Shown: positions 1,924-50,290 of the stretch, one piece after another
Layout of the letters: every line of letters begins with the position of its first letter
Numbering within the stretch: position 1 is the stretch's first letter
NCBI GenBank assembly: GCA_951406725.2
Contig: OX597823.1
Coordinates: forward strand, 72,912,001-72,976,000
Direction of reading: 5' to 3'
DNA from: Octopus vulgaris
Lineage: Eukaryota
Length of the DNA: 64,000 nucleotides
Translations under genes and position numbers: made by a program
Notes under the pieces: generated by a model
Seen by the model: only the letters and a program-made list of their open reading frames with translations
The model's database searches: none
What the model was told of the DNA's origin: nothing

Positions 1924-1986
1924 AGCTATTTTAGCTCATTGCGTAGCGCTCAAAGGAAAAAAAAAACTAGTTTTCAGCGGTAAAAT

Positions 1987-2750
1987 ATGGCATCGAAAAT
2001 TAGATTCGGCAACGACATGTTGAGACCATTCTCCGGCCAAGGCGACATGGTGGCTTGGATAAAGAAGGTGAAGCTAGTTGCAAAATTACAAGGAATACAG
2101 GACCCAACCAGCCTCCTACCATTGTATTTAGAATGTAGCGCACTGAGCCTGTATCTAGAGATGCTGGAGGGCGATCAGCAAAAGATCGAAAAGATCGAGG
2201 AACGGTTAAAAGTTGATTATAGGGAGGGAGCCTTTAAGGTGTATAGTAAGCGCGAAAGCGTGAACTGGACCGGAGAACAGGTCGACGATTATGCGAGTGA
2301 AATTAGGAGATGGTGGCTTTAGCAGGGATTTCCGGCGAGGCAATAGAGTGTTGTGAGGTTGCCCTTTGTGACTGTATTTCTCGATCACATTTCAATAAGT
2401 TTGTAGCAGCTACCGGGTATCTACACCATACCAGTGAGCGAGGTGATAGAGCGTACTCGCGTCATGACTCAGAACAACACACGCGATGTAGTTTGTACGA
2501 TGACGGAGACGAAACTGACATAGAGGCGAATCGAAGATAGCAGGAAGAAGAATGAGGCGAGAGAAGCTGGGCGAACGATGAAGGACCATGTTTCAGATAT
2601 CTGGGTCCTCATATAGTCAGAGACTGCACGGCACCGAAACCGGAAGTGATGTGCAACCGGTGTGACCAGCCCGGACACATTACTAACCAATGTAAACAGG
2701 GAAACGGATGGAAAAGAGCTACTGCGCCGGTAGCTACCCCGCCAACCGCT
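1987..2750 (+). pseudogene. gag: Gypsy gag (frameshifted, internal stops) with two zinc knuckles
   Basis: Gag-like N-terminus (PFSGQGDMVAWIKKVKLVAKL...LLPLYLE). The frame from 2583 reads GPCFRYLGPHIVRDC...CNRCDQPGHITNQC; the second knuckle is an intact CX2CX4HX4C. Confidence 0.8.
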
Positions 2751-2925
2751 TAGAGGCGCACTCGCACTCACTGCCAATAATAAACGTTCAGGTGCTGTCG
2801 AGAGAGGCCCGAGCCCTTGTGGATACTGGTTGCGCTACAAATTTGGTGACGGTAAAAATGGTGACTAGCTGGTGCGGTAACCCACATCTAAGTGCGGTGG
2901 ATAGCAGGAAAGTGAGGTGCAGAGG
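2708..2925 (+). pseudogene. pol: Retroviral-type aspartic protease (5' end of pol), truncated
   Basis: LPIINVQV...ARALVDTGCATNLV contains the DTG active site. The sequence switches to an unrelated AT-rich repeat at ~2925. Confidence 0.8.
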
Positions 2926-3091
2926 CGAAGACTGTTTGATTTCATTATTTTCTTCTTTTTACCTATGTGACTTACAAGTAGTGTTTCCTGTGGAGACATA
3001 TTTTGTAGGAAAAAGAAATAGCGGTCTTTTGGCTACTATTTCTAAATTTTCAGTATGTGGTGAAGCAACTTTGTGGCTAAACCTTTAATTA
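2926..3091 (+). repeat. Non-coding PLE-tail-like repeat ending near (AT)n
   Basis: Reverse-complement match to 28900-29076 (gaagactgttt...ctatttctaaattttcagtatgtggtgaagcaac...taaacctttaatta). Confidence 0.6.
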
Positions 3092-10121: not shown

Positions 10122-11344
10122 TACTGTGTGTGATAGGTAAATTGTCACCGTTTTATATATCTTTTATTTCGCGGAGGTGCAATGTTCGATTTTGATTTTG
10201 TCGACTACATAGTACAGTAGTGTCAATTGAGTACCGTTTGTGAGAGAAACAGCACCATGACGCAATGCACTCTGTCAGAAATTTACAAAGGATTCGGAAA
10301 GAGTTAGATGAATCTAATGGTAATTAAGAAGGTAGGACAGCTCAGAAAAGTCACTCTCATTGTTCTGATAATAAAAAAACACTCCAGGCCACGACTGACA
10401 AGGATCTCTCCAAGTCAATTAAGTCTATCGCCAAGGACATGGGAGTGCCTGAGTTTCTTATCAGGCACTTAGTGCATGAAGACATTCGGTATTACTCATA
10501 CAAATGAGAAAGGGCCACTATTTATCCTAAGCTATGAAGGACAAGAGGAAAGATGGCGCTATGCAACTTCTGAACAAACACAAGCATCCCCTCCAACCAA
10601 ACATGCTTTGGATTTTCTCAGACGAGAAAAGGTTTCTGCCAGGATCAGAACAACTGTTGGTTTGCCGTGTCCCCAAAACATATACCAAGGGTGATAAAAA
10701 CCAAACATCCAGTCAACATCATGGTGTTTGGAGTGATCACTAGTGATGGCGACGCTATGTCTCCGTTCATCTTCCCACACGACATCAGACTCAAGACGGA
10801 GGCTTATATCAAGTGCTGGGAGGAGGTATTACTACTCTTGGTCAAGAGGATGGCTGCTGGAAGACACTATGTCTAACAACAGAACTCTGCACCATGCTAC
10901 ACAAGCAGGAGTACCCAGTCATGGCTCTCAGACCATTTTTGCAACCACATCACCCTTAACATCTGGCCACCTAACTTCCCAGACTGCTATTCCCTTGATT
11001 ATTATTTGTCGAACGCAGTTGAGCAAGAAACCAACAAAACTCCTTGTAACACCAAAGATGAACTGTAGGCAAAGATTATTATTTGTCGAACGCAGTTGAG
11101 CAAGAAACCAACAAAACTCCTTGTAACACCAAAGATGAACTGTAGGCAAAGATTATGGCAGCATTCACCACCTTAAACAAGATCACTGCTCAGAAGAGTT
11201 GTAGATTTTATTGAAAAATATTTACACATTAGTATTTTGAGATATTTTAATATAATTTTGGTAACTATATCGGTTAAATTGAGATTTCAGGGTTATTTTC
11301 ATTTGTGCGTTATTTAGATAAAAAATTATTCACCGCACGCTGTA
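10122..11344 (+). mobile_element. Degenerate Tc1/mariner-superfamily transposon, maT/DD37D-like
   Basis: Transposase remnants WIFSDEKRF, TKHPVNIMVFGVITSDG, QQNSAPCYTS and WPPNFPDCYSLDYY. Imperfect TIRs tactgtgtgtgatagg / caccgcacgctgta with TA ends. Confidence 0.8.
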
Positions 11345-22084: not shown

Positions 22085-22489
22085 GAGCTGGCAGTCATTG
22101 GATGAAAGAAATGCTTCGTGGTATTTCTCCTGCCGCTACGTTCTGAGTTCAAATTCCGGCGAGATCAACTTTACCTTTCATCTTTTCGGAGTCGATTAAA
22201 TAAATAGCAGTTACGCACTGGGGTCGATATAATCAATTTAATCCGTTTTTCTGTCCTTGTTTGTCCTCTCTGTGTTTAGCCCCTTGTGGGTGGTAAAAAA
22301 TAGGTATTTCGCTCGTCGCTACGTTCTGAGTTCAAATTCCACCGAGGTCGACTTTATCTTTCATCCTTCCCTAGTCGATAAATTAAGTACCAGTGAAATT
22401 TCGGGGTCGATGTAATCGTCTAGTCCCCCCCACACACACACACACACACGACGCTTCGGGCATTGTGCCCATAATAGAAAAGATTATTC
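22085..22489 (+). mobile_element. SINE family A, internally duplicated copy
   Basis: Two copies of cgctacgttctgagttcaaattcc...ctttcatc...gtcga. Homologous to 610-1005. Confidence 0.75.
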
Positions 22490-22768
22490 ATATCATAATA
22501 GTAGAAGTTCAAAATCTCAAATTGTTATATAATAGCAGCACGGTATGCCATGACTTACTTATATTTGTTTACAATTTTGTGGGTAAGCGGTACCATGATA
22601 AGGTTAAGACTGGTTGACACTCGAACATTTCAATAACTTTGTATCTAGTGAAAATATAGGACTTCCCAAAATAACTCAATTATGTCTCATAAAGGTTCGT
22701 TTTATTGATCATTGCGTGTGTGTTTGTGCGTTCCTGAGTGTGTTTGTGTACATATACACACACAAACA

Positions 22769-22840
<72 letters not shown>

Positions 22841-22843
<3 letters not shown>

Positions 22844-25800
22844 CAACAATTGAGGGTAAAATTAATTAATTATTAATCAATTTCACCAAGTATTCAGTAT
22901 GTAAAGGGACCATTTAAGGCGAATTCAAATTATTACATTATATAAAAGGGCTTAGTAAAATAAATTACTTTGCCACATACTGAACTCATTAGAAATAGTA
23001 GCTAAAAAAACTTTTAAAAACTATTTCTAATACTTAAAGAAAATCTCTCTCATATAGTGTTTGCTCAATTCAACTCACGAAAGTATGGGGGTAAAGACAT
23101 TAAAAAATCAAATGCAAAGGTTATTTGAGAACGTACGTTTCAAGATTAGTCAACTCGACATTTCTATCATCAGCTCAGAACTCATTGGTTTGGATTTGAA
23201 AACACTGAAAGTGGGAGCATACCCTTTCGGCTTCTTATCGCTTCTGAAGATCTGCTCGAAACTAACAGTGCCAGCAAACCCAAAGTATGCAAGCGAAGAA
23301 TTTCTGCTCTCCCCTTTCCACCAGCGTGGGTTAAAATCAGTAAACACTATGCTTTTTCGGTAAAATCCGAAGCATTAAACAAAGAGAGATGAATTATAAT
23401 TTCAACAATTGAGGGTAACATTAATTAATTATTAATCAATTTCACCAAGTATTCAGTATGTAAAGGGACCATTTAAGGCGAATTCAAATTATTACATTAT
23501 ATAAAAGGGCTTAGTAAAATAAATTACTTTGCCACATACTGAACTCATTAGAAATAGTAGCTAAAAAAACTTTTTTAAAACTATTTCTAATACTTAAAGA
23601 AAATCTCTCTCATATAGTGTTTGCTCAATTCAACTCACGAAAGTATGGGGGTAAAGACATTAAAAAATCAAATGCAAAGGTTATTTGAGAACGTACGTTT
23701 CAAGATTAGTCAACTCGACATTTCTATCATCAGCTCAGAACTCCTTGGTTTGGATTTGAAAACACTGAAAGTGGGAGCATACCCTTTCGGCTTCTTATCG
23801 CTTCTGAAGATCTGCTCGAAACTAACAGTGCCAGCAAACCCAAAATATGCAAGCGAAGAATTTCTGAAATTATAATTCATCTCTCTCTATTTAATGCTTC
23901 GGATTTTACCGAAAAAGCATAGTGTTTACTGATTTTAATCCACGCTGGTGGAAAGGGAGAGCAGAAATTCTTCGCTTGCATATTTTGGGTTTGCTGGCAC
24001 TGTTAGTTTCGAGCAGATCTTCAGAAGCGATAAGAAGCCGAAAGGGTATGCTCCCACTTTCAGTGTTTTCAAATCCAAACCAAGGAGTTCTGAGCTGATG
24101 ATAGAAATGTCGAGTTGACTAATCTTGAAACGTACGTTCTCAAATAACCTTTGCATTTGATTTTTTAATGTCTTTACCCCATACTTTCGTGAGTTGAATT
24201 GAGCAAACACTATATGAGAGAGATTTTCTTTAAGTATTAGAAATAGTTTTAAAAAAGTTTTTTTAGCTACTATTTCTAATGAGTTCAGTATGTGGCAAAG
24301 TAATTTATTTTACTAAGCCCTTTTATATAATGTAATAATTTGAATTCGCCTTAAATGGTCCCTTTACATACTGAATACTTGGTGAAATTGATTAATAATT
24401 AATTAATTTTACCCTCAATTGTTGAAATTATAATTCATCTCTCTCTATTTAATGCTTCGGATTTTACCGAAAAAGCATAGTGTTTACTGATTTTAACCCA
24501 CGCTGGTGGAAAGGGGAGAGCAGAAATTCTTCGCTTGCATATTTTGGGTTTGCTGGCACTGTTAGTTTCGAGCAGATCTTCAGAAGCGATAAGAAGCCGA
24601 AAGGGTATGCTCCCACTTTCAGTGTTTTCAAATCCAAACCAAGGAGTTCTGAGCTGATGATAGAAATGTCGAGTTGACTAATCTTGAAACGTACGTTCTC
24701 AAATAACCTTTGCATTTGATTTTTTAATGTCTTTACCCCTATACTTTCGTGAGTTGAATTGAGCAAACACTATATGAGAGATTTTCTTTAAGTATTAGAA
24801 ATAGTTTTAAAAAGTTTTTTTAGCTACTATTTCTAATGAGTTCAGTATGTGGCAAAGTAATTTATTTTACTAAGCCCTTTTATATAATGTAATAATTTGA
24901 ATTCGCCTTAAATGGTCCCTTTACATACTGAATACTTGGTGAAATTGATTAATAATTAATTAATTTTACCCTCAATTATTGAAATTATAATTCATCTCTC
25001 TCTGTTTAATGCTTCGGATTTTACCGAAAAAGCATAGTGTTTACTGATTTTAACCCACGCTGGTGGAAAGGGAGAGCAGAAATTCTTCGCTTGCATATTT
25101 TGGGTTTGCTGGCACTGTTAGTTTCGAGCAGATCTTCAGAAGAGATAAGAAGCCGAAAGGGTATGCTCCCACTTTCAGTGTTTTCAAATCCAAACCAAGG
25201 AGTTCTGAGCTGATGATAGAAATGTCGAGTTGACTAATCTTGAAACGTACGTTCTCAAATAACCTTAGCATTTCATTTTTTAATGTCTTTACCCCCATAC
25301 TTTCGTGAGTTGAATTGAGCAAACACTATATGAGAGAGATTTTCTTTAAGTATTAGAAATAGTTTTAAAAAGGTTTTAGCTACTATTTCTAATGAGTTCA
25401 GTATGTGGCAAAGTAATTTATTTTACTAAGCCCTTTTATATAATGTAATAATTTGAATTCGCCTTAAATGGTCCCTTTACATACTGAATACTTGGTGAAA
25501 TTGATTAATAATTAATTAATTTTACCCTCAATTGTTGAAATTATAATTCATCTCTCTCTGTTTAATGCTTCGGATTTTACCGAAAAAGCATAGTGTTTAC
25601 TGATTTTAACCCACGCTGGTGGAAAGGGGAGAGCAGAAATTCTTCGCTTGCATATTTTGGGTTTGCTGGCACAGTTAGTTTCGAGCAGATCTTCAGAAGC
25701 GATAAGAAGCCGAAAGGGTATGCTCCCACTTTCAGTGTTTTCAAATCCAAACCAAGGAGTTCTGAGCTGATGATAGAAATGTCGAGTTGACTAATCTTGA

Positions 25801-26006
25801 AACGTACGTTCTCAAATAACCTTTGCATTTGATTTTTTAATGTCTTTACCCCCATACTTTCGTGAGTTGAATTGAGCAAACACTATATGAGAGAGATTTT
25901 CTTTAAGTATTAGAAATAGTTTTAAAAAAGTTTTTTTAGCTACTATTTCTAATGAGTTCAGTATGTGGCAAAGTAATTTATTTTACTAAGCCCTTTTATA
26001 TAATGT

Positions 26007-26011
<5 letters not shown>
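22841..26011. repeat. Young array of ~556-559-bp monomers (about 1.8 units forward, 3.85 units inverted), flanked by (AT)n on both sides
   Basis: Forward units at 22841-23399 and 23400-23866 (partial). Inverted units at 23865-24422, 24423-24979, 24980-25535 and 25536-26011 (partial). Units differ by only a few substitutions and homopolymer indels. Confidence 0.97.
24091..24142 (+). ncRNA. Type I hammerhead-like motif, one per monomer (also 24650-24701, 25206-25257, 25763-25814 on +; 23126-23177, 23686-23737 on -)
   Basis: tgag-CUGAUGA-taga..gtc[gagtt]gac..tctt-GAAA-cgtacg-UU-ctca. Helix I tgag/ctca, palindromic helix III loop GUAC, GUU triplet. The closing pair of helix II is U.U. Confidence 0.65.
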
Positions 26012-26084
<73 letters not shown>

Positions 26085-26658: not shown

Positions 26659-26735
<77 letters not shown>

Positions 26736-26834
26736 ATAAAACGGTAAGATAACAAAAGAAAGAAAGAGACCTCAATATTATGTAAATAGAGGAAATTTAT
26801 CTATACAATAATATGTTACTTTACTCGGTGGTCA

Positions 26835-26895
26835 AGATAAAACTGAGTTTCAGATGCCGAAGTGGAAATCCACAACACCATCTCTTCGGTTATCT
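26835..26895 (-). ncRNA. Variant hammerhead-like motif in the PLE pLTR
   Basis: agataa-CCGAAGA-gatg...catc(t)-GAAA-ctcag-UU-ttatct. Helix I is perfect; the core has U4->C and one extra nt before GAAA. A second partial copy lies at 35506-35566. Confidence 0.45.
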
Positions 26896-27087
26896 GGCTA
26901 TTTGAAAACGCTATGAAAAAATACCGTTAAATAAAGGGAAATTATTTTGTTATAACTCTGCTTGCCTGCGTACTTATACATCGCTCGCATTTTTCGTCAT
27001 AAAAATTATATAAAAATACATAAAACATATATAAAAATATATAAAAATATATAAATTCTTCTTGGGACATAACATAGAACGCATGTT

Positions 27088-27530
27088 CTATCTGTTTTCT
27101 TTAGGGGACCAAAAACGTAACAGAAATTTAGTCACATGTGGGCATGATCCGAAAAGCTCTGTCCTTGTATTTAGACATGTAGTAGGGTCTAAGCTGCTTT
27201 TCCAGATAAGCCATCTCTCCATGTCGCATAGACCGCACCTTCCGCTGCCGTTGGTATAGGGCTTACATCTGGCCAAAATCTTCCATTGTATGTTATAATC
27301 GACACCTTTATCTCTTAAAGACCAAATATGATTAGATAATTGTGTCGCTTTTCTTTTGTTCCAGTGCCTAAAGCTCAAAGTGTGGTTATTGAATCTGGCC
27401 TTGAAATTATCCTCTGTAAGGCCCACGTATTTCTTCGTCGAAACGGTGTCTTTAGTGGTTATAGAGTTTACGGTAGCTTCATATATGATGGTCTTGGACA
27501 TGCAAGCTCCATTTAGCGGGCACAATTTAT
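27088..27530 (-). pseudogene. GIY-YIG endonuclease domain of the PLE
   Basis: IIY...YVG motif with the conserved R, H, E and N residues and Cys/His zinc-binding motifs. Confidence 0.85.
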
Positions 27531-27895
27531 TGTGCATGAACAGCTGCATGAACAGCTGTTTTCTTGTGTTTTTTGTATGTTATGTTTGATTATGTTTTTA
27601 AAATTGGTAGTTGAACTAAAACTAATTTTTAAATTGTGTCTATTGAAGAGTTTCCTATAAGTATGGTTAACTGGAAAATGTCTATCTATCAGTGCTAGGA
27701 AATATTTACCTATATTGAAGGCCACCTCGGGTGAGTAAGGGGGCGTAAACCAGATGACCTTCCTATTTCTATTATTCCTTTTCCTTACTGTTGGGCTAGT
27801 GATAGGTGTATATTTTATTTTTTCGCTAAAACCACTATCTTTATCTATATATGTCTATATCTATATCTATCTATCTATATCTATCTATCTATCTA

Positions 27896-32228: not shown

Positions 32229-32747
32229 TATGATTGGATGCTAAAATACTAAAACTAGTTCATAGCGAAAGCCAAATTGAAAACATTTTCACAACACACA
32301 CGTGCGCAATTGCACAAAACGCATGCAAGCATACACACACACACACACATGCACTGTTTATAAAGAAAATATCTCTCAGGTGAGGGTTTTCGCTGCGCAG
32401 ATCTTTGAGTATACCCCAACATGTAGAACATAATTCTGCTACCAATGTTTTAATTATTGTTGTTTAATGTGCCTGTAGAAATCTTTCCACAGTTTAGTAA
32501 ATGTTTTATTTCTTGTTTAAATATAACAACACTAGTTCATAATGGGCTACGAAAACCAGATATGGTGTCTGGATCTGATGAAGTGTGACAACGCAGAAAC
32601 ACTTGTCCGATGCTCTGGAGACACCATTAATAGCCCAGTAGTGTGTTTTTCATGCACATTCTTTATAATGATAATTGCTCTTCAGAGAATATTTTCGCAG
32701 TGGATTCATTATACATTTGAGTGTACGCGAACTTGTAAATTATAATT

Positions 32748-34905: not shown

Positions 34906-35699
34906 CATGTATGTATAAATATTCTGTGCGTGTGTGTGTTTCGTATGTATATGTATGTATATATATGTATGTGTGTATGTGTGTGTTTCTTAAGTATGTA
35001 TTTATTGCTTCTCTTAAAGCAGCCTTGAACAACCTATTTTGTCAATAAAATATCCATTAAAAATTACTGCTTGAACAGTATATATATCTTCTCACATGCT
35101 GTAAGTAGTTGAAGAAAAGGTTTCACAGGCGCAGATAGCTCAGACACCATTGTTTTCTTCCTACACTGTCAATATTCGACAAATATTTTCAAATTATCAT
35201 TTTATGAGAGACTCCGGTTCACTCATAATTACGTTCTTAATATTTCTGATGTAAATATATGAATGACCTCTGATAGAATAAATACATGAACATATTTACT
35301 TTATTATTATCACAACAGTTTGGCTTTGTGTAAGAAGTTTCTTTCGGCTTCATACTGTTACATCTCAGAAATATGTAACAGCATAGGGTAAAATATGTGA
35401 TTATTATGAAAAGTTGATAGTAAGGAATAACTAACATAAGTGTGTATTTATAATTAAAGATGGTACATAAATATATGTATGTATATATATCACAATTATT
35501 CAATAGTCAAGATAAAACTCTGAGTTTCGGATGCCGAGATGGAAATCCACAACACCATCTCTTCGTTGGACTTTATATATATGTGCACACACCTATAAAG
35601 ATATATATGTATTCATATGCACCCATAAACGCACACACACACACTCATACACAAAATCACACACACATACACAAAATCACACACACATACACACACATG

Positions 35700-40519: not shown

Positions 40520-40645
40520 TATATAGAAGGAGCTTCTACAGGACTAGTACTGTTTCATTCAAGAGAAATCTTCAGGAAGCTTCCTGAAGATTTCTCTTGA
40601 ATGAAACAGTACTAGTCCTGTAGAAGCTCCTTCTATATAATAAAT
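40514..40645. repeat. Perfect 132-bp palindrome with no spacer
   Basis: Arms 40514-40579 and 40580-40645 are exact reverse complements, centred on gaag|cttc, with (AT)n on both sides. Confidence 0.97.
40578..40628 (+). ncRNA. Type I hammerhead (mirror copy on - at 40531-40581)
   Basis: agcttc-CUGAAGA-tttc[tctt]gaat-GAAA-cag[tactagtc]ctg-UA-gaagct. Helix I 6 bp, helix III cag/ctg, GUA triplet, U.U closing helix II. Confidence 0.7.
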
Positions 40646-48704: not shown

Positions 48705-50290
48705 GTGATGGCTGTCTCATCGTTATCGAGTATGGCGTATAGCCCTCGCATGAGGCTTAAATGTTACTTCTGCTATGATCGGATGTGACATTTTAGCCCT
48801 GCTAAAGATTTAAAATATGTTGTACACAATTGGCTGCTAAAATCTTTACTGGCAATAGCCGACTGTAGTTGTCATTGGGCTTCATGTACCTTTGCATGTC
48901 GTTTAAGTCCTCCCGCCGAATTGCACTCCCTTCCATATGCCGACAGATATGATTAGTATGGTGTGTAGCACCACCACTAGCAGTCAATCATCGGCCTCAC
49001 TTTATGACTACGAAGATGACTCTTGAGTCTAGCTTTACTGAGGCAAGATCTTGCACATACACTGCATGTGTGGAGGGATGCCCCTCCTGAAATCCCTCCT
49101 TACTTTCTCATGCGTAGCTCGAGATTTCTCAAAAGTAGATGTCCCCTTATCTATATGTTCATCATTTTCCTTAATCCAATCTTGATGCATTATTTGTATC
49201 AATCCTAGAACTTTGTATCAATCCTAGAACCTGCCTATATCATAAACGGATTTTTTAAGGGTCGGCCAATCCTTCCCAATATCTGCAACATTCATTTCCA
49301 CTCGTAAATGTCTTGTGACACTATTACACCTAAGACGGATTTTACTTTTTGTGATTAATTTCACTTTTGCACGTACCAGGCGGTGGTCAGTCCAATACTC
49401 AGCCCCACGAAGAACACGAACACACTGCACATCTCGTCTGTCACGCACCCTAGCAAGATTGTAATCCAGAATATGCAGAGTGCATCCATGCACTTCTTAT
49501 ACTTATTCTGTTGTTGAAACATGTTATTGGTAACACACAGACGCAGCTCCTCGCACATCTGCAACAGAAGCATACCATTACTATTAACTTTCTCAACCCA
49601 TGCTTTCCAATTACAGTTCATGTGTTAAAATGCGTACCCACTCTTGCATTAAAGTCACCCAAAACGACGATTTTGTCTGCCCGAGGGATATTTCTTATAA
49701 CGACCTTCAAAGCGTGGTAGAAAGAAACTTTTTCGTCATCAGTAGAGCACATAGTTCAGCATACACACTCACCAAGGTCACATAATTTCCTTTAACCAAA
49801 GAATTCTCATGGACATAAAAGTCTCGTTAATCTCGACTGGGAATTCTTCCAACTTGTCCACAATAGTAGTCTTAACAGCAAATGCCACTCCAGCTTCTCC
49901 TCTAAACTCTTCATCTCTCCCTTTCCAAACGAATGTATATTTTCCACAAAATTCCCAAATTTGACCATTTCCAGCTAATCTCGTCTGAGATAAAGCAACG
50001 ATGTCAAGATCATAGAGTCGAAACTCCTTCGCAACAACAGCAGTCCTTCTTTCAGGATATTCTGACGACTCGCGGTCAAGTAGTGTCCTTACATTCCAAC
50101 AGCATGTATTCAATATTTTATTTGGTTCTATCACAGTAGCTCGATGACGGCCCGATTCAGACTGTGATGCTCTGGAGGCCCTGCCGGGCCAGATTCTTTC
50201 GTCTGAAGTGGTTCCACAGTCCTTACTGCCATTTATTTTTATACTGTTTTGGTACATCATGGATTATTTGCTTGTTAAGGCTACAGCCAG
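48705..50290 (-). mobile_element. Decayed RTE-clade LINE, 5' region (APE endonuclease into the start of RT)
   Basis: WNVRTLLD...ERRTAVVAKE...DIVALSQTR...GVAFAVK, ILGDFNARVG, NSNGMLLL..C, ILDY and WTDHRLV motifs spread across frameshifts. Confidence 0.88.

Follow-up and report, generated by a model that had tools for sequence, protein, structure and literature searches.

The stretch of Octopus vulgaris DNA considered here, 64,000 nucleotides of contig OX597823.1 (referred to below as the window), carries at positions 22841-26011 an array of 5.7 units, each 556-560 bp long, 98-99% alike and with a GC content of 33%, which are arranged in two oppositely oriented arms between tracts of (AT)n and which bear hammerhead ribozymes. 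The array is a real young insertion of a new family of non-long terminal repeat (non-LTR) retrozymes, with inversions of the type known from Penelope-like elements (PLEs). Its parts are as follows:

22756-22841, no strand: (AC)n followed by an (AT)19 tract, the left target/primer side
22841-23866, minus (hammerhead sense): left, inverted arm, 1,026 bp, 1.84 units
23865-23866, no strand: inversion junction, with TG common to both arms; unit position 98 (left) meets position 1 (right)
23865-26011, plus: right arm, 2,146 bp, 3.85 units, ending at unit position 477
26011-26081, no strand: (AT)35 tract, the right target/primer side

Array anatomy and unit variation

The units of the right arm start at 23865 (R1), 24423 (R2), 24980 (R3) and 25536 (R4), and the left arm, read in the sense of the hammerhead, begins at unit position 98, passes through a complete unit and stops at about position 5 of the next. 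In that same sense the two arms point outward and stand head-to-head at their inner ends, forming an inverted repeat of 1,026 bp with 1,015 identities around a 95-nt spacer, and their outer ends directly abut the (AT)19 (22804-22841) and the (AT)35, while tracts of (AT)5 or longer make up only 2.5% of the window. No protein-coding capacity was recognized in the array, where the longest stop-to-stop frame has 124 aa, runs antisense and gives no significant Pfam match; neither a reverse transcriptase (RT) nor a GIY-YIG frame is present, and the units join head-to-tail without any coding remnant. A transfer RNA (tRNA)-like or RNA polymerase III module was considered for the unit and rejected, as neither a tRNA gene nor a B box was found in it; an LTR arrangement is likewise absent, and there are no further copies of the unit elsewhere in the window. 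A sequence-only reading of the same DNA had described about 5.7 near-identical units of some 558 bp, a single TG-microhomology junction at 23865-23866, outward arms ending in (AT)n, an inverted repeat of about 1 kb and no RT or endonuclease coding, all of which proved correct. Its further ideas, that the inverted repeat could feed double-stranded RNA, ADAR editing or small interfering RNA production, would need read-through transcription.

Pairwise comparison of the units gives 1-8 substitutions per 380-560 columns. Thirteen of the 14 substitution sites are private to a single unit and evenly spread (chi-square P=0.52), and one substitution is common to R1 and R2 only. Two homopolymer length variants, including a shorter A run, are common to L2 and R2, which lie opposite one another in the inverted repeat; otherwise, neither L1 and R1 nor L2 and R2 have variants in common. 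A run of three or four G residues alternates in length from L2 to R4 (4,3,4,3,4 at sites 23312, 23955, 24513, 25070 and 25627), which, together with the A run of L2 and R2, faintly suggests a template with a period of two units; the substitution shared by R1 and R2 contradicts such a period.

The hammerhead ribozyme and the predicted fold of the unit RNA

The hammerhead that had been claimed for each unit is complete and of type I at six out of six places, always with GUU as the cleavage triplet:

23126-23177, minus: unit L2, C3 at 23173, predicted cut after 23130
23686-23737, minus: unit L1, C3 at 23733, predicted cut after 23690; family variants were mapped here
24091-24142, plus: unit R1, C3 at 24095, predicted cut after 24138
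24650-24701, plus: unit R2, C3 at 24654
25206-25257, plus: unit R3, C3 at 25210
25763-25814, plus: unit R4, C3 at 25767

Each motif is built from a 4-bp helix I with an extension, CUGAUGA, a U-U-closed helix II, GAAA, a helix III of 1 bp and GUU; of 20,000 dinucleotide-shuffled versions of the unit, 13 contained a full type I motif. A search of the array against Rfam returned no match at the gathering score, and no hammerhead family was among the 24 matches at E<=10. Helix III lies inside a perfect 10-nt palindrome, for which -9.8 kcal/mol was computed as an inter-unit duplex and +2.4 kcal/mol as a hairpin, and a dimer design with a palindromic helix III is known for metazoan hammerheads, as described in part of PMC4209133. 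The hammerhead of the unit is thus predicted to be of the dimer type and to cut itself.

On the opposite strand a second ribozyme was sought and rejected: only a bare CUGAAGA-7-GAAAC core is found there (99 of 20,000 shuffles), which lacks helices II and III as well as an NUH site, shows variation at G12 among family members and can be paired onto the sense core only at a cost of 13-15 kcal/mol. This bare core lies at 23804-23822 (plus), with equivalents in each unit, beside a 6-bp helix, and has a 0.5% chance per strand. Other hammerhead-like sequences occur elsewhere in the window, namely a palindromic element at 40540-40620 that has, on either strand, a hammerhead-like core and a possible helix I (C3 at 40584 plus and 40575 minus), and isolated CUGAUGA...GAAAC cores at 32575 (plus) and 41670 (minus), which look like decayed PLE-type hammerheads whose helix I is not intact.

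When folded as a circle, the unit is predicted to be 63% paired on the ribozyme strand (z=-4.8 against shuffles), with 20 G-U pairs on this strand versus 7 on the opposite one, and the fold contains all three of the additional hairpins noted by the sequence-only reading. Its main predicted elements, given for R1, are these:

23919-24213, plus: long-range helix, unit 55-97 with 305-349, closing the ribozyme domain
24235-24281, plus: hairpin, unit 371-417, with the compensatory pair 383/405 in the family
24283-24376, plus: stem-loop, unit 419-512, with the compensatory pair 429/502; its loop contains the right-arm end position 477
24381-24413, plus: AT-rich perfect hairpin of 33 nt, unit 517-549, just upstream of the left-arm end/right-arm start site

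A retrozyme family in public contigs

The unit or part of it is contained in 20 of the 24 public runs listed, eight of them holding at least half of its words; the matching runs come from eight studies under four organism labels, and one is possibly the window's own source. Two DNA runs (X1 and X3) yielded 4,179 and 2,834 contigs at 85-100% identity, of which 1,434 and 876, respectively, are at least 99% alike and the rest 85-99%. Such numbers, at mostly 85-99% identity, indicate a large and varied family and not a local amplification, as the earlier reading had anticipated; summed contig depths do not equal copy numbers and were not used as such. Two further runs guessed to be RNA contributed 36 and 52 contigs, are possibly DNA given the abundance of the family and were not used as evidence. 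None of the 20 matching runs is on record as RNA, and exact-pattern scans of metagenome and viral contigs gave 0 loci.

Family variants were mapped on 23405-23962, which covers each unit position once plus the junction, with four runs aligned, and the statistics rest on the 40 listed of 63 variant rows. Six variant positions fall within the 52-nt ribozyme, at N7, 10.1, H17 and three loop sites, and none of the six is at any of the 33 constrained positions (P=0.0013). Both variants at 10.1 (U to A or G) restore a pair, and the H17 change turns GUU into GUA (26% in X1). The family thus spares the core of its ribozyme, which is conserved. Two compensatory pairs (429/502 and 383/405) were found among 24 variants at a frequency of at least 5% in a DNA run, where 0.16 would be expected (P=0.01), the two sides of 429/502 having matching shares of 48% and 47% in X1; uncompensated pair breaks number 4 versus 8.4 expected (P=0.016). 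As regards the array itself, its units are uniform at sites that are highly polymorphic in the family, and R3 carries a common family allele (23676-equivalent, 28% in X1). Where array and family differ, mostly A/T stands here and G/C elsewhere (in X1, 15 A>G or T>C of 27 places).

These observations bear directly on classification, since the array shows the features of non-LTR retrozymes: one type I hammerhead per unit, head-to-tail tandem organization, low GC content (33%, the class having less than 45-50%), absence of coding, many copies and an RNA predicted to be highly self-paired, in a genome where PLEs are also present (the fragment at 26734-27842, see below). The array is, accordingly, a non-LTR retrozyme, a new family of a described class, for which self-cleavage is predicted and a circular RNA is possible. 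The retrozyme identity proposed earlier thereby gains support from the type I hammerheads, the tandem units and the conserved core. The idea that the unit is exceptionally long did not hold. Units measure 170-400 nt in the experimental study of non-LTR retrozymes and 150-450 bp in the original description, according to the main text of PMC7229834, whereas predicted units span 51-972 bp across 35 genomes (Li et al. 2026, bioRxiv 10.64898/2026.07.22.740005), so that 558 nt, being inside this range, is not a novel length.

Eleven joints between units are listed for the family: two normal tandem joints, two same-orientation rearrangements and seven inversion junctions other than the one in the array. 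Six of these seven have a depth of 44-84 in DNA runs, and three have at least 30 nt on their short side. They are as expected for PLE insertions and, together with the inverted arm, lend support to the earlier suggestion that the insertion bears PLE marks. The junction at 23865-23866 is itself crossed by an X1 contig (record 7), which has 27-29 nt on the left side, below the 31-nt rule, and three differences in 94 positions at a depth of 186; it may represent an allele or several copies, and it supports the inversion junction of this locus. Among the 24 of 223 loose ends shown, one X9 contig passes from unit position ~551 into AT-rich sequence and (TA)n, near the position at which the left arm ends.

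A neighbouring Penelope-like fragment and the surroundings of the array

Situated 0.7 kb from the array is the following feature, which is separate from the insertion:

26734-27842, minus: 5'-truncated PLE fragment with a GIY-YIG end and Hydra-type motifs, between AT-rich microsatellites

Its match to GIY-YIG is weak (E 0.0014), and it is about 50% identical to the RT-GIY-YIG proteins P0001-P0013. The latter carry the motifs CxCX5C, CxxC and CxH, and the fragment retains CxxC and CxH with a disrupted linker. According to passages of PMC8557442, these three motifs define the Hydra clade, nearly all families of which insert into (TA)n and carry hammerheads. The fragment is therefore a candidate Hydra-type element, assigned by motifs and without a tree. 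At 26889 it has a hammerhead-like motif with a GUU site and the core CCGAAGA instead of CUGANGA. It contains one frameshift near a 12-bp duplication at 27533-27558, and a second, 60-bp piece of its 3' region lies at 35506-35565.

As for the remaining surroundings, a 115-nt direct repeat with 183-nt spacing is found just left of the array (22120-22417), a 77-bp tandem duplication lies at 10997-11182, and 49778-50263 resembles the endonuclease of a long interspersed nuclear element (LINE; Pfam PF03372, E 0.0016). Two further segments, 1984-3088 and 10574-10876, are fragments that we take to be mobile-element-like (gag/protease-like and transposase-like, respectively). Pfam families of host genes were not found in the 124 of 192 longer window frames that were scanned, nor in nine others.

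Insertion geometry and mechanism

In unit coordinates, the left arm extends at its outer end to position 5-6, and position 1 is where the right arm begins, an overlap of 6 nt that has a probability of about 2% by chance on a 558-nt cycle; laid end to end in RNA order, the two arms make up one contiguous multimer of 3.17 kb. At both outer ends only about 2 nt of homology are available, and both positions fall in predicted loops. In twin priming, as described in part of PMC2912911, reverse transcription is also primed by the second target end, at an internal site of the same RNA, and a microhomology lets the two complementary DNAs (cDNAs) anneal. The phase match corresponds to this layout, hence both arms are likely to derive from one multi-unit RNA. 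Furthermore, a purified PLE protein nicks AT-rich DNA and extends both strands, starting internally on the RNA without target homology and preferring unprocessed RNA (PMC11167929), and PLE insertions are partial tandems, often with an inverted 5'-truncated copy (passages of PMC8557442). Because of the end geometry, the behaviour of the PLE protein and the inverted copies of PLEs, we favour, with middling confidence, a single insertion event in which a PLE RT/endonuclease primed both (AT)n strands on one multi-unit RNA.

This mechanism would begin with transcription of source arrays, whose transcripts would form double hammerheads through pairing of the palindromic helix III between neighbouring units. 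These would cut at GUU and release 558-nt monomers, which would themselves cut poorly and which a host ligase could circularise. The ribozyme being presumably weak, with its helix III of 1 bp, U-U-closed helix II and GUU triplet, uncleaved multimers would be left over. A PLE enzyme could then nick both strands of an (AT)n tract; one target strand would prime at unit position 477 and copy 3.85 units, and the other would prime at position ~5, where the first cDNA had stopped, and copy 1.84 units further upstream. The two cDNA ends would finally anneal at TG/CA, resulting in head-to-head arms whose 3' ends face (AT)n. The template would have comprised at least 3.17 kb of contiguous units, either in a linear multimer that had escaped cleavage or in a circle of several units. 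A (TA)n-targeting PLE would most likely have been the mobiliser, for example one of the Hydra-type family represented 0.7 kb away. Since the unit and this fragment have no detectable sequence in common, the latter shows that suitable machinery exists in the genome, not that it mobilised the array. The more specific proposal, that a Hydra-clade PLE enzyme primed both (AT)n strands and used for both the same retrozyme RNA of several units, perhaps the two-unit circle of 1,116 nt at which the alternating unit variants hint, is offered tentatively; if true, it names the mobiliser, the form of the template and the origin of PLE-type inversions in one family.

Several points weigh against the favoured mechanism and against parts of the evidence on which it is built. 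Homology of the unit to the 3' region of the neighbouring PLE is not detectable (best E 0.25), a target-site duplication, which exceeds 4 bp in those non-LTR retrozymes that have one, is unreadable with both flanks being (AT)n, and the outer ends, at unit positions 477 and ~563, are 86 nt apart, compared with the 30-40 nt of a PLE tail. The 2% coincidence was spotted post hoc at a single locus, the other junctions having no flanks on which it could be tested. As to the family, the short side is below 30 nt in four of the seven other inversion joints, and a possibly-RNA run is the source of one. If the six intact hammerheads behave like axolotl dimers, which cut efficiently (main text of PMC7229834), they should deplete long linear templates; of nine Xenopus retrozyme dimers, eight did not cut (Li et al. 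2026). For the circular monomer at 37 C, the active conformation of the ribozyme is predicted to be 5.9 kcal/mol less stable than the minimum-energy fold, helix I forming with a probability of 0.4-0.5. The star-like private changes also fit one ancestral unit, be it through circle rolling or recent amplification. Finally, the antisense strand folds equally far below its shuffles (z=-4.7), and the pair-breaking test without compensation gives 6 versus 8.6 (P=0.13; antisense fold P=0.15). Because both strands thus lie about 4.7 standard deviations below shuffles and the simple test is not significant, the case for a strand-specific structure depends on the ribozyme and on the surplus of G-U pairs.

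The closest rival keeps the retrozyme and the PLE machinery and replaces the template by a 558-nt monomer circle, rolled 3.85 and 1.84 rounds, with the second RT working on the same or on a second circle and the first having been blocked at the protein-bound start site of the second. Rolling on circles is a published proposal (main text of PMC7229834), and it would account for units that are uniform where the family is polymorphic and for star-like private changes; the ends are arbitrary and permuted, and the unit folds well as a circle. However, one round of copying would leave a monomer circle completely covered by cDNA, with no exposed position at which a second primer could land, and with two circles the 6-nt phase match would remain a 2% coincidence unless the block is assumed. 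The substitution of R1 and R2 and the alternating G run would moreover require slippage or later conversion, and unprocessed RNA is the template of the only PLE enzyme that has been studied in vitro. We consider the monomer circle possible, if rather doubtful, and an uncleaved multimer (or a dimer circle) to fit somewhat better. What stands of the earlier proposal of a multimeric cDNA made by rolling on a 558-nt circle and inserted by PLE machinery is, therefore, the part borne out by the PLE marks, whereas rolling on a monomer circle could have occurred and is not favoured in view of the end geometry and the shared variants. It is unlikely that a short retrozyme was inserted first and that array and inversion grew later in the DNA, through unequal exchange and fold-back synthesis at TG. 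Local tandem amplification of retrozymes has been proposed by Li et al., and such growth would explain the two homopolymer variants of the facing units L2 and R2 and the substitution of the adjacent R1 and R2. Yet each arm terminates precisely at (AT)n with its RNA-sense 3' end outward, fold-back does not explain why the left arm should end at the phase in which the right arm begins, L1/R1 and L2/R2 do not have their other variants in common, and inversion junctions recur across the family.

The two remaining explanations change the nature of the array itself. The unit could be the pseudo-LTR or 3' end of an autonomous PLE and the array a run of truncated ends, with no independent parasite involved, as might be suggested by Xenopus retrozymes that match PLE pseudo-LTRs (Li et al.) and by PLE insertions being partial tandems with an inverted 5' copy (passages of PMC8557442). 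The head-to-tail units without coding remnant, the dominance of these same tandem joints in the family contigs and the 24 of 223 loose ends, which suggest no common adjoining coding sequence, make this very improbable; an origin of the unit from a pseudo-LTR would be compatible with the multi-unit RNA mechanism preferred here. It is scarcely credible that misassembly of a repeat family produced the copy number or the inversion: the contig crossing the junction is a few letters below the 31-nt rule and differs at 3 of 94 positions, but every unit has its own variants, one of which is the common family allele of R3, a short-read contig does cross the junction, and similar junctions exist elsewhere in the family.

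Significance

Retrozymes have been argued to be non-autonomous PLE derivatives by a mechanism that remains to be worked out (Li et al. 2026); the link between animal retrozymes and PLEs rests on co-occurrence and pseudo-LTR similarity, and circle rolling is a proposal. The element itself belongs to a described class, so that the surprise is moderate. A young and abundant family with multi-unit arrays and inversions in (AT)n can, nevertheless, provide junction-level data on which PLE does the mobilising. Its junctions could separate a circular from an uncleaved multimeric template and show whether PLE inversions are the product of twin priming.

Comparison with known systems

No literature report of this retrozyme family, in octopus or other cephalopods included, was found, supplements and subscription papers lying outside the material covered, and a literature listing for twin priming with Penelope contained only unrelated papers. 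The word "inverted" is absent from the main text of PMC7229834 and from passages of PMC5680766, insertion junctions are not a subject of the main text of Li et al. 2026, and neither inverted arms nor (AT)n targeting is described in the main texts of PMC7229834 or Li et al. 2026. With metazoan non-LTR retrozymes the array has in common the tandem, non-coding, low-GC units with one type I hammerhead each, the many copies, a structured RNA (predicted here) and the co-occurrence with PLEs. Its helix III resembles that of the axolotl ribozyme HHR_Amex1, which is likewise of 1 bp with a palindromic tetraloop, and the U-U at the base of its helix II has a counterpart in HHR_Amex2 (main text of PMC7229834). 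Unlike the experimentally studied metazoan retrozymes, it has a unit of 558 nt versus 170-400 nt and no sequence relative in Rfam.

Plant LTR retrozymes and hammerhead viroids are comparable in that their RNA, too, is non-coding, extensively paired, of about the same size, equipped with a hammerhead and potentially able to circularise, whereas the hammerhead of the array is of type I and not type III, and there is no LTR arrangement or tRNA-like primer module (passages of PMC5680766). Symmetric viroid-like RNAs differ as well, in that the array has no complete ribozyme on the opposite strand. Regarding the mode of insertion, a resemblance to twin-primed, 5'-inverted L1 copies, as described in part of PMC2912911, is seen in the microhomology at the junction and in the outer end of the inverted arm adjoining the inner start of the direct arm in RNA coordinates; in contrast to L1, the array has no poly(A) tail, no readable target duplication and no LINE sequence, and its RNA template is periodic. 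Insertions of Hydra-clade PLEs provide a further parallel, combining a partial tandem with an inverted 5'-truncated copy, a (TA)n target and a type I hammerhead (passages of PMC8557442), and the internal start of reverse transcription with little target homology recalls the PLE of PMC11167929. The array departs from PLEs in having no RT/GIY-YIG frame and outer ends 86 nt apart compared with a tail of 30-40 nt; it behaves like a parasite of PLEs and is not an autonomous PLE.

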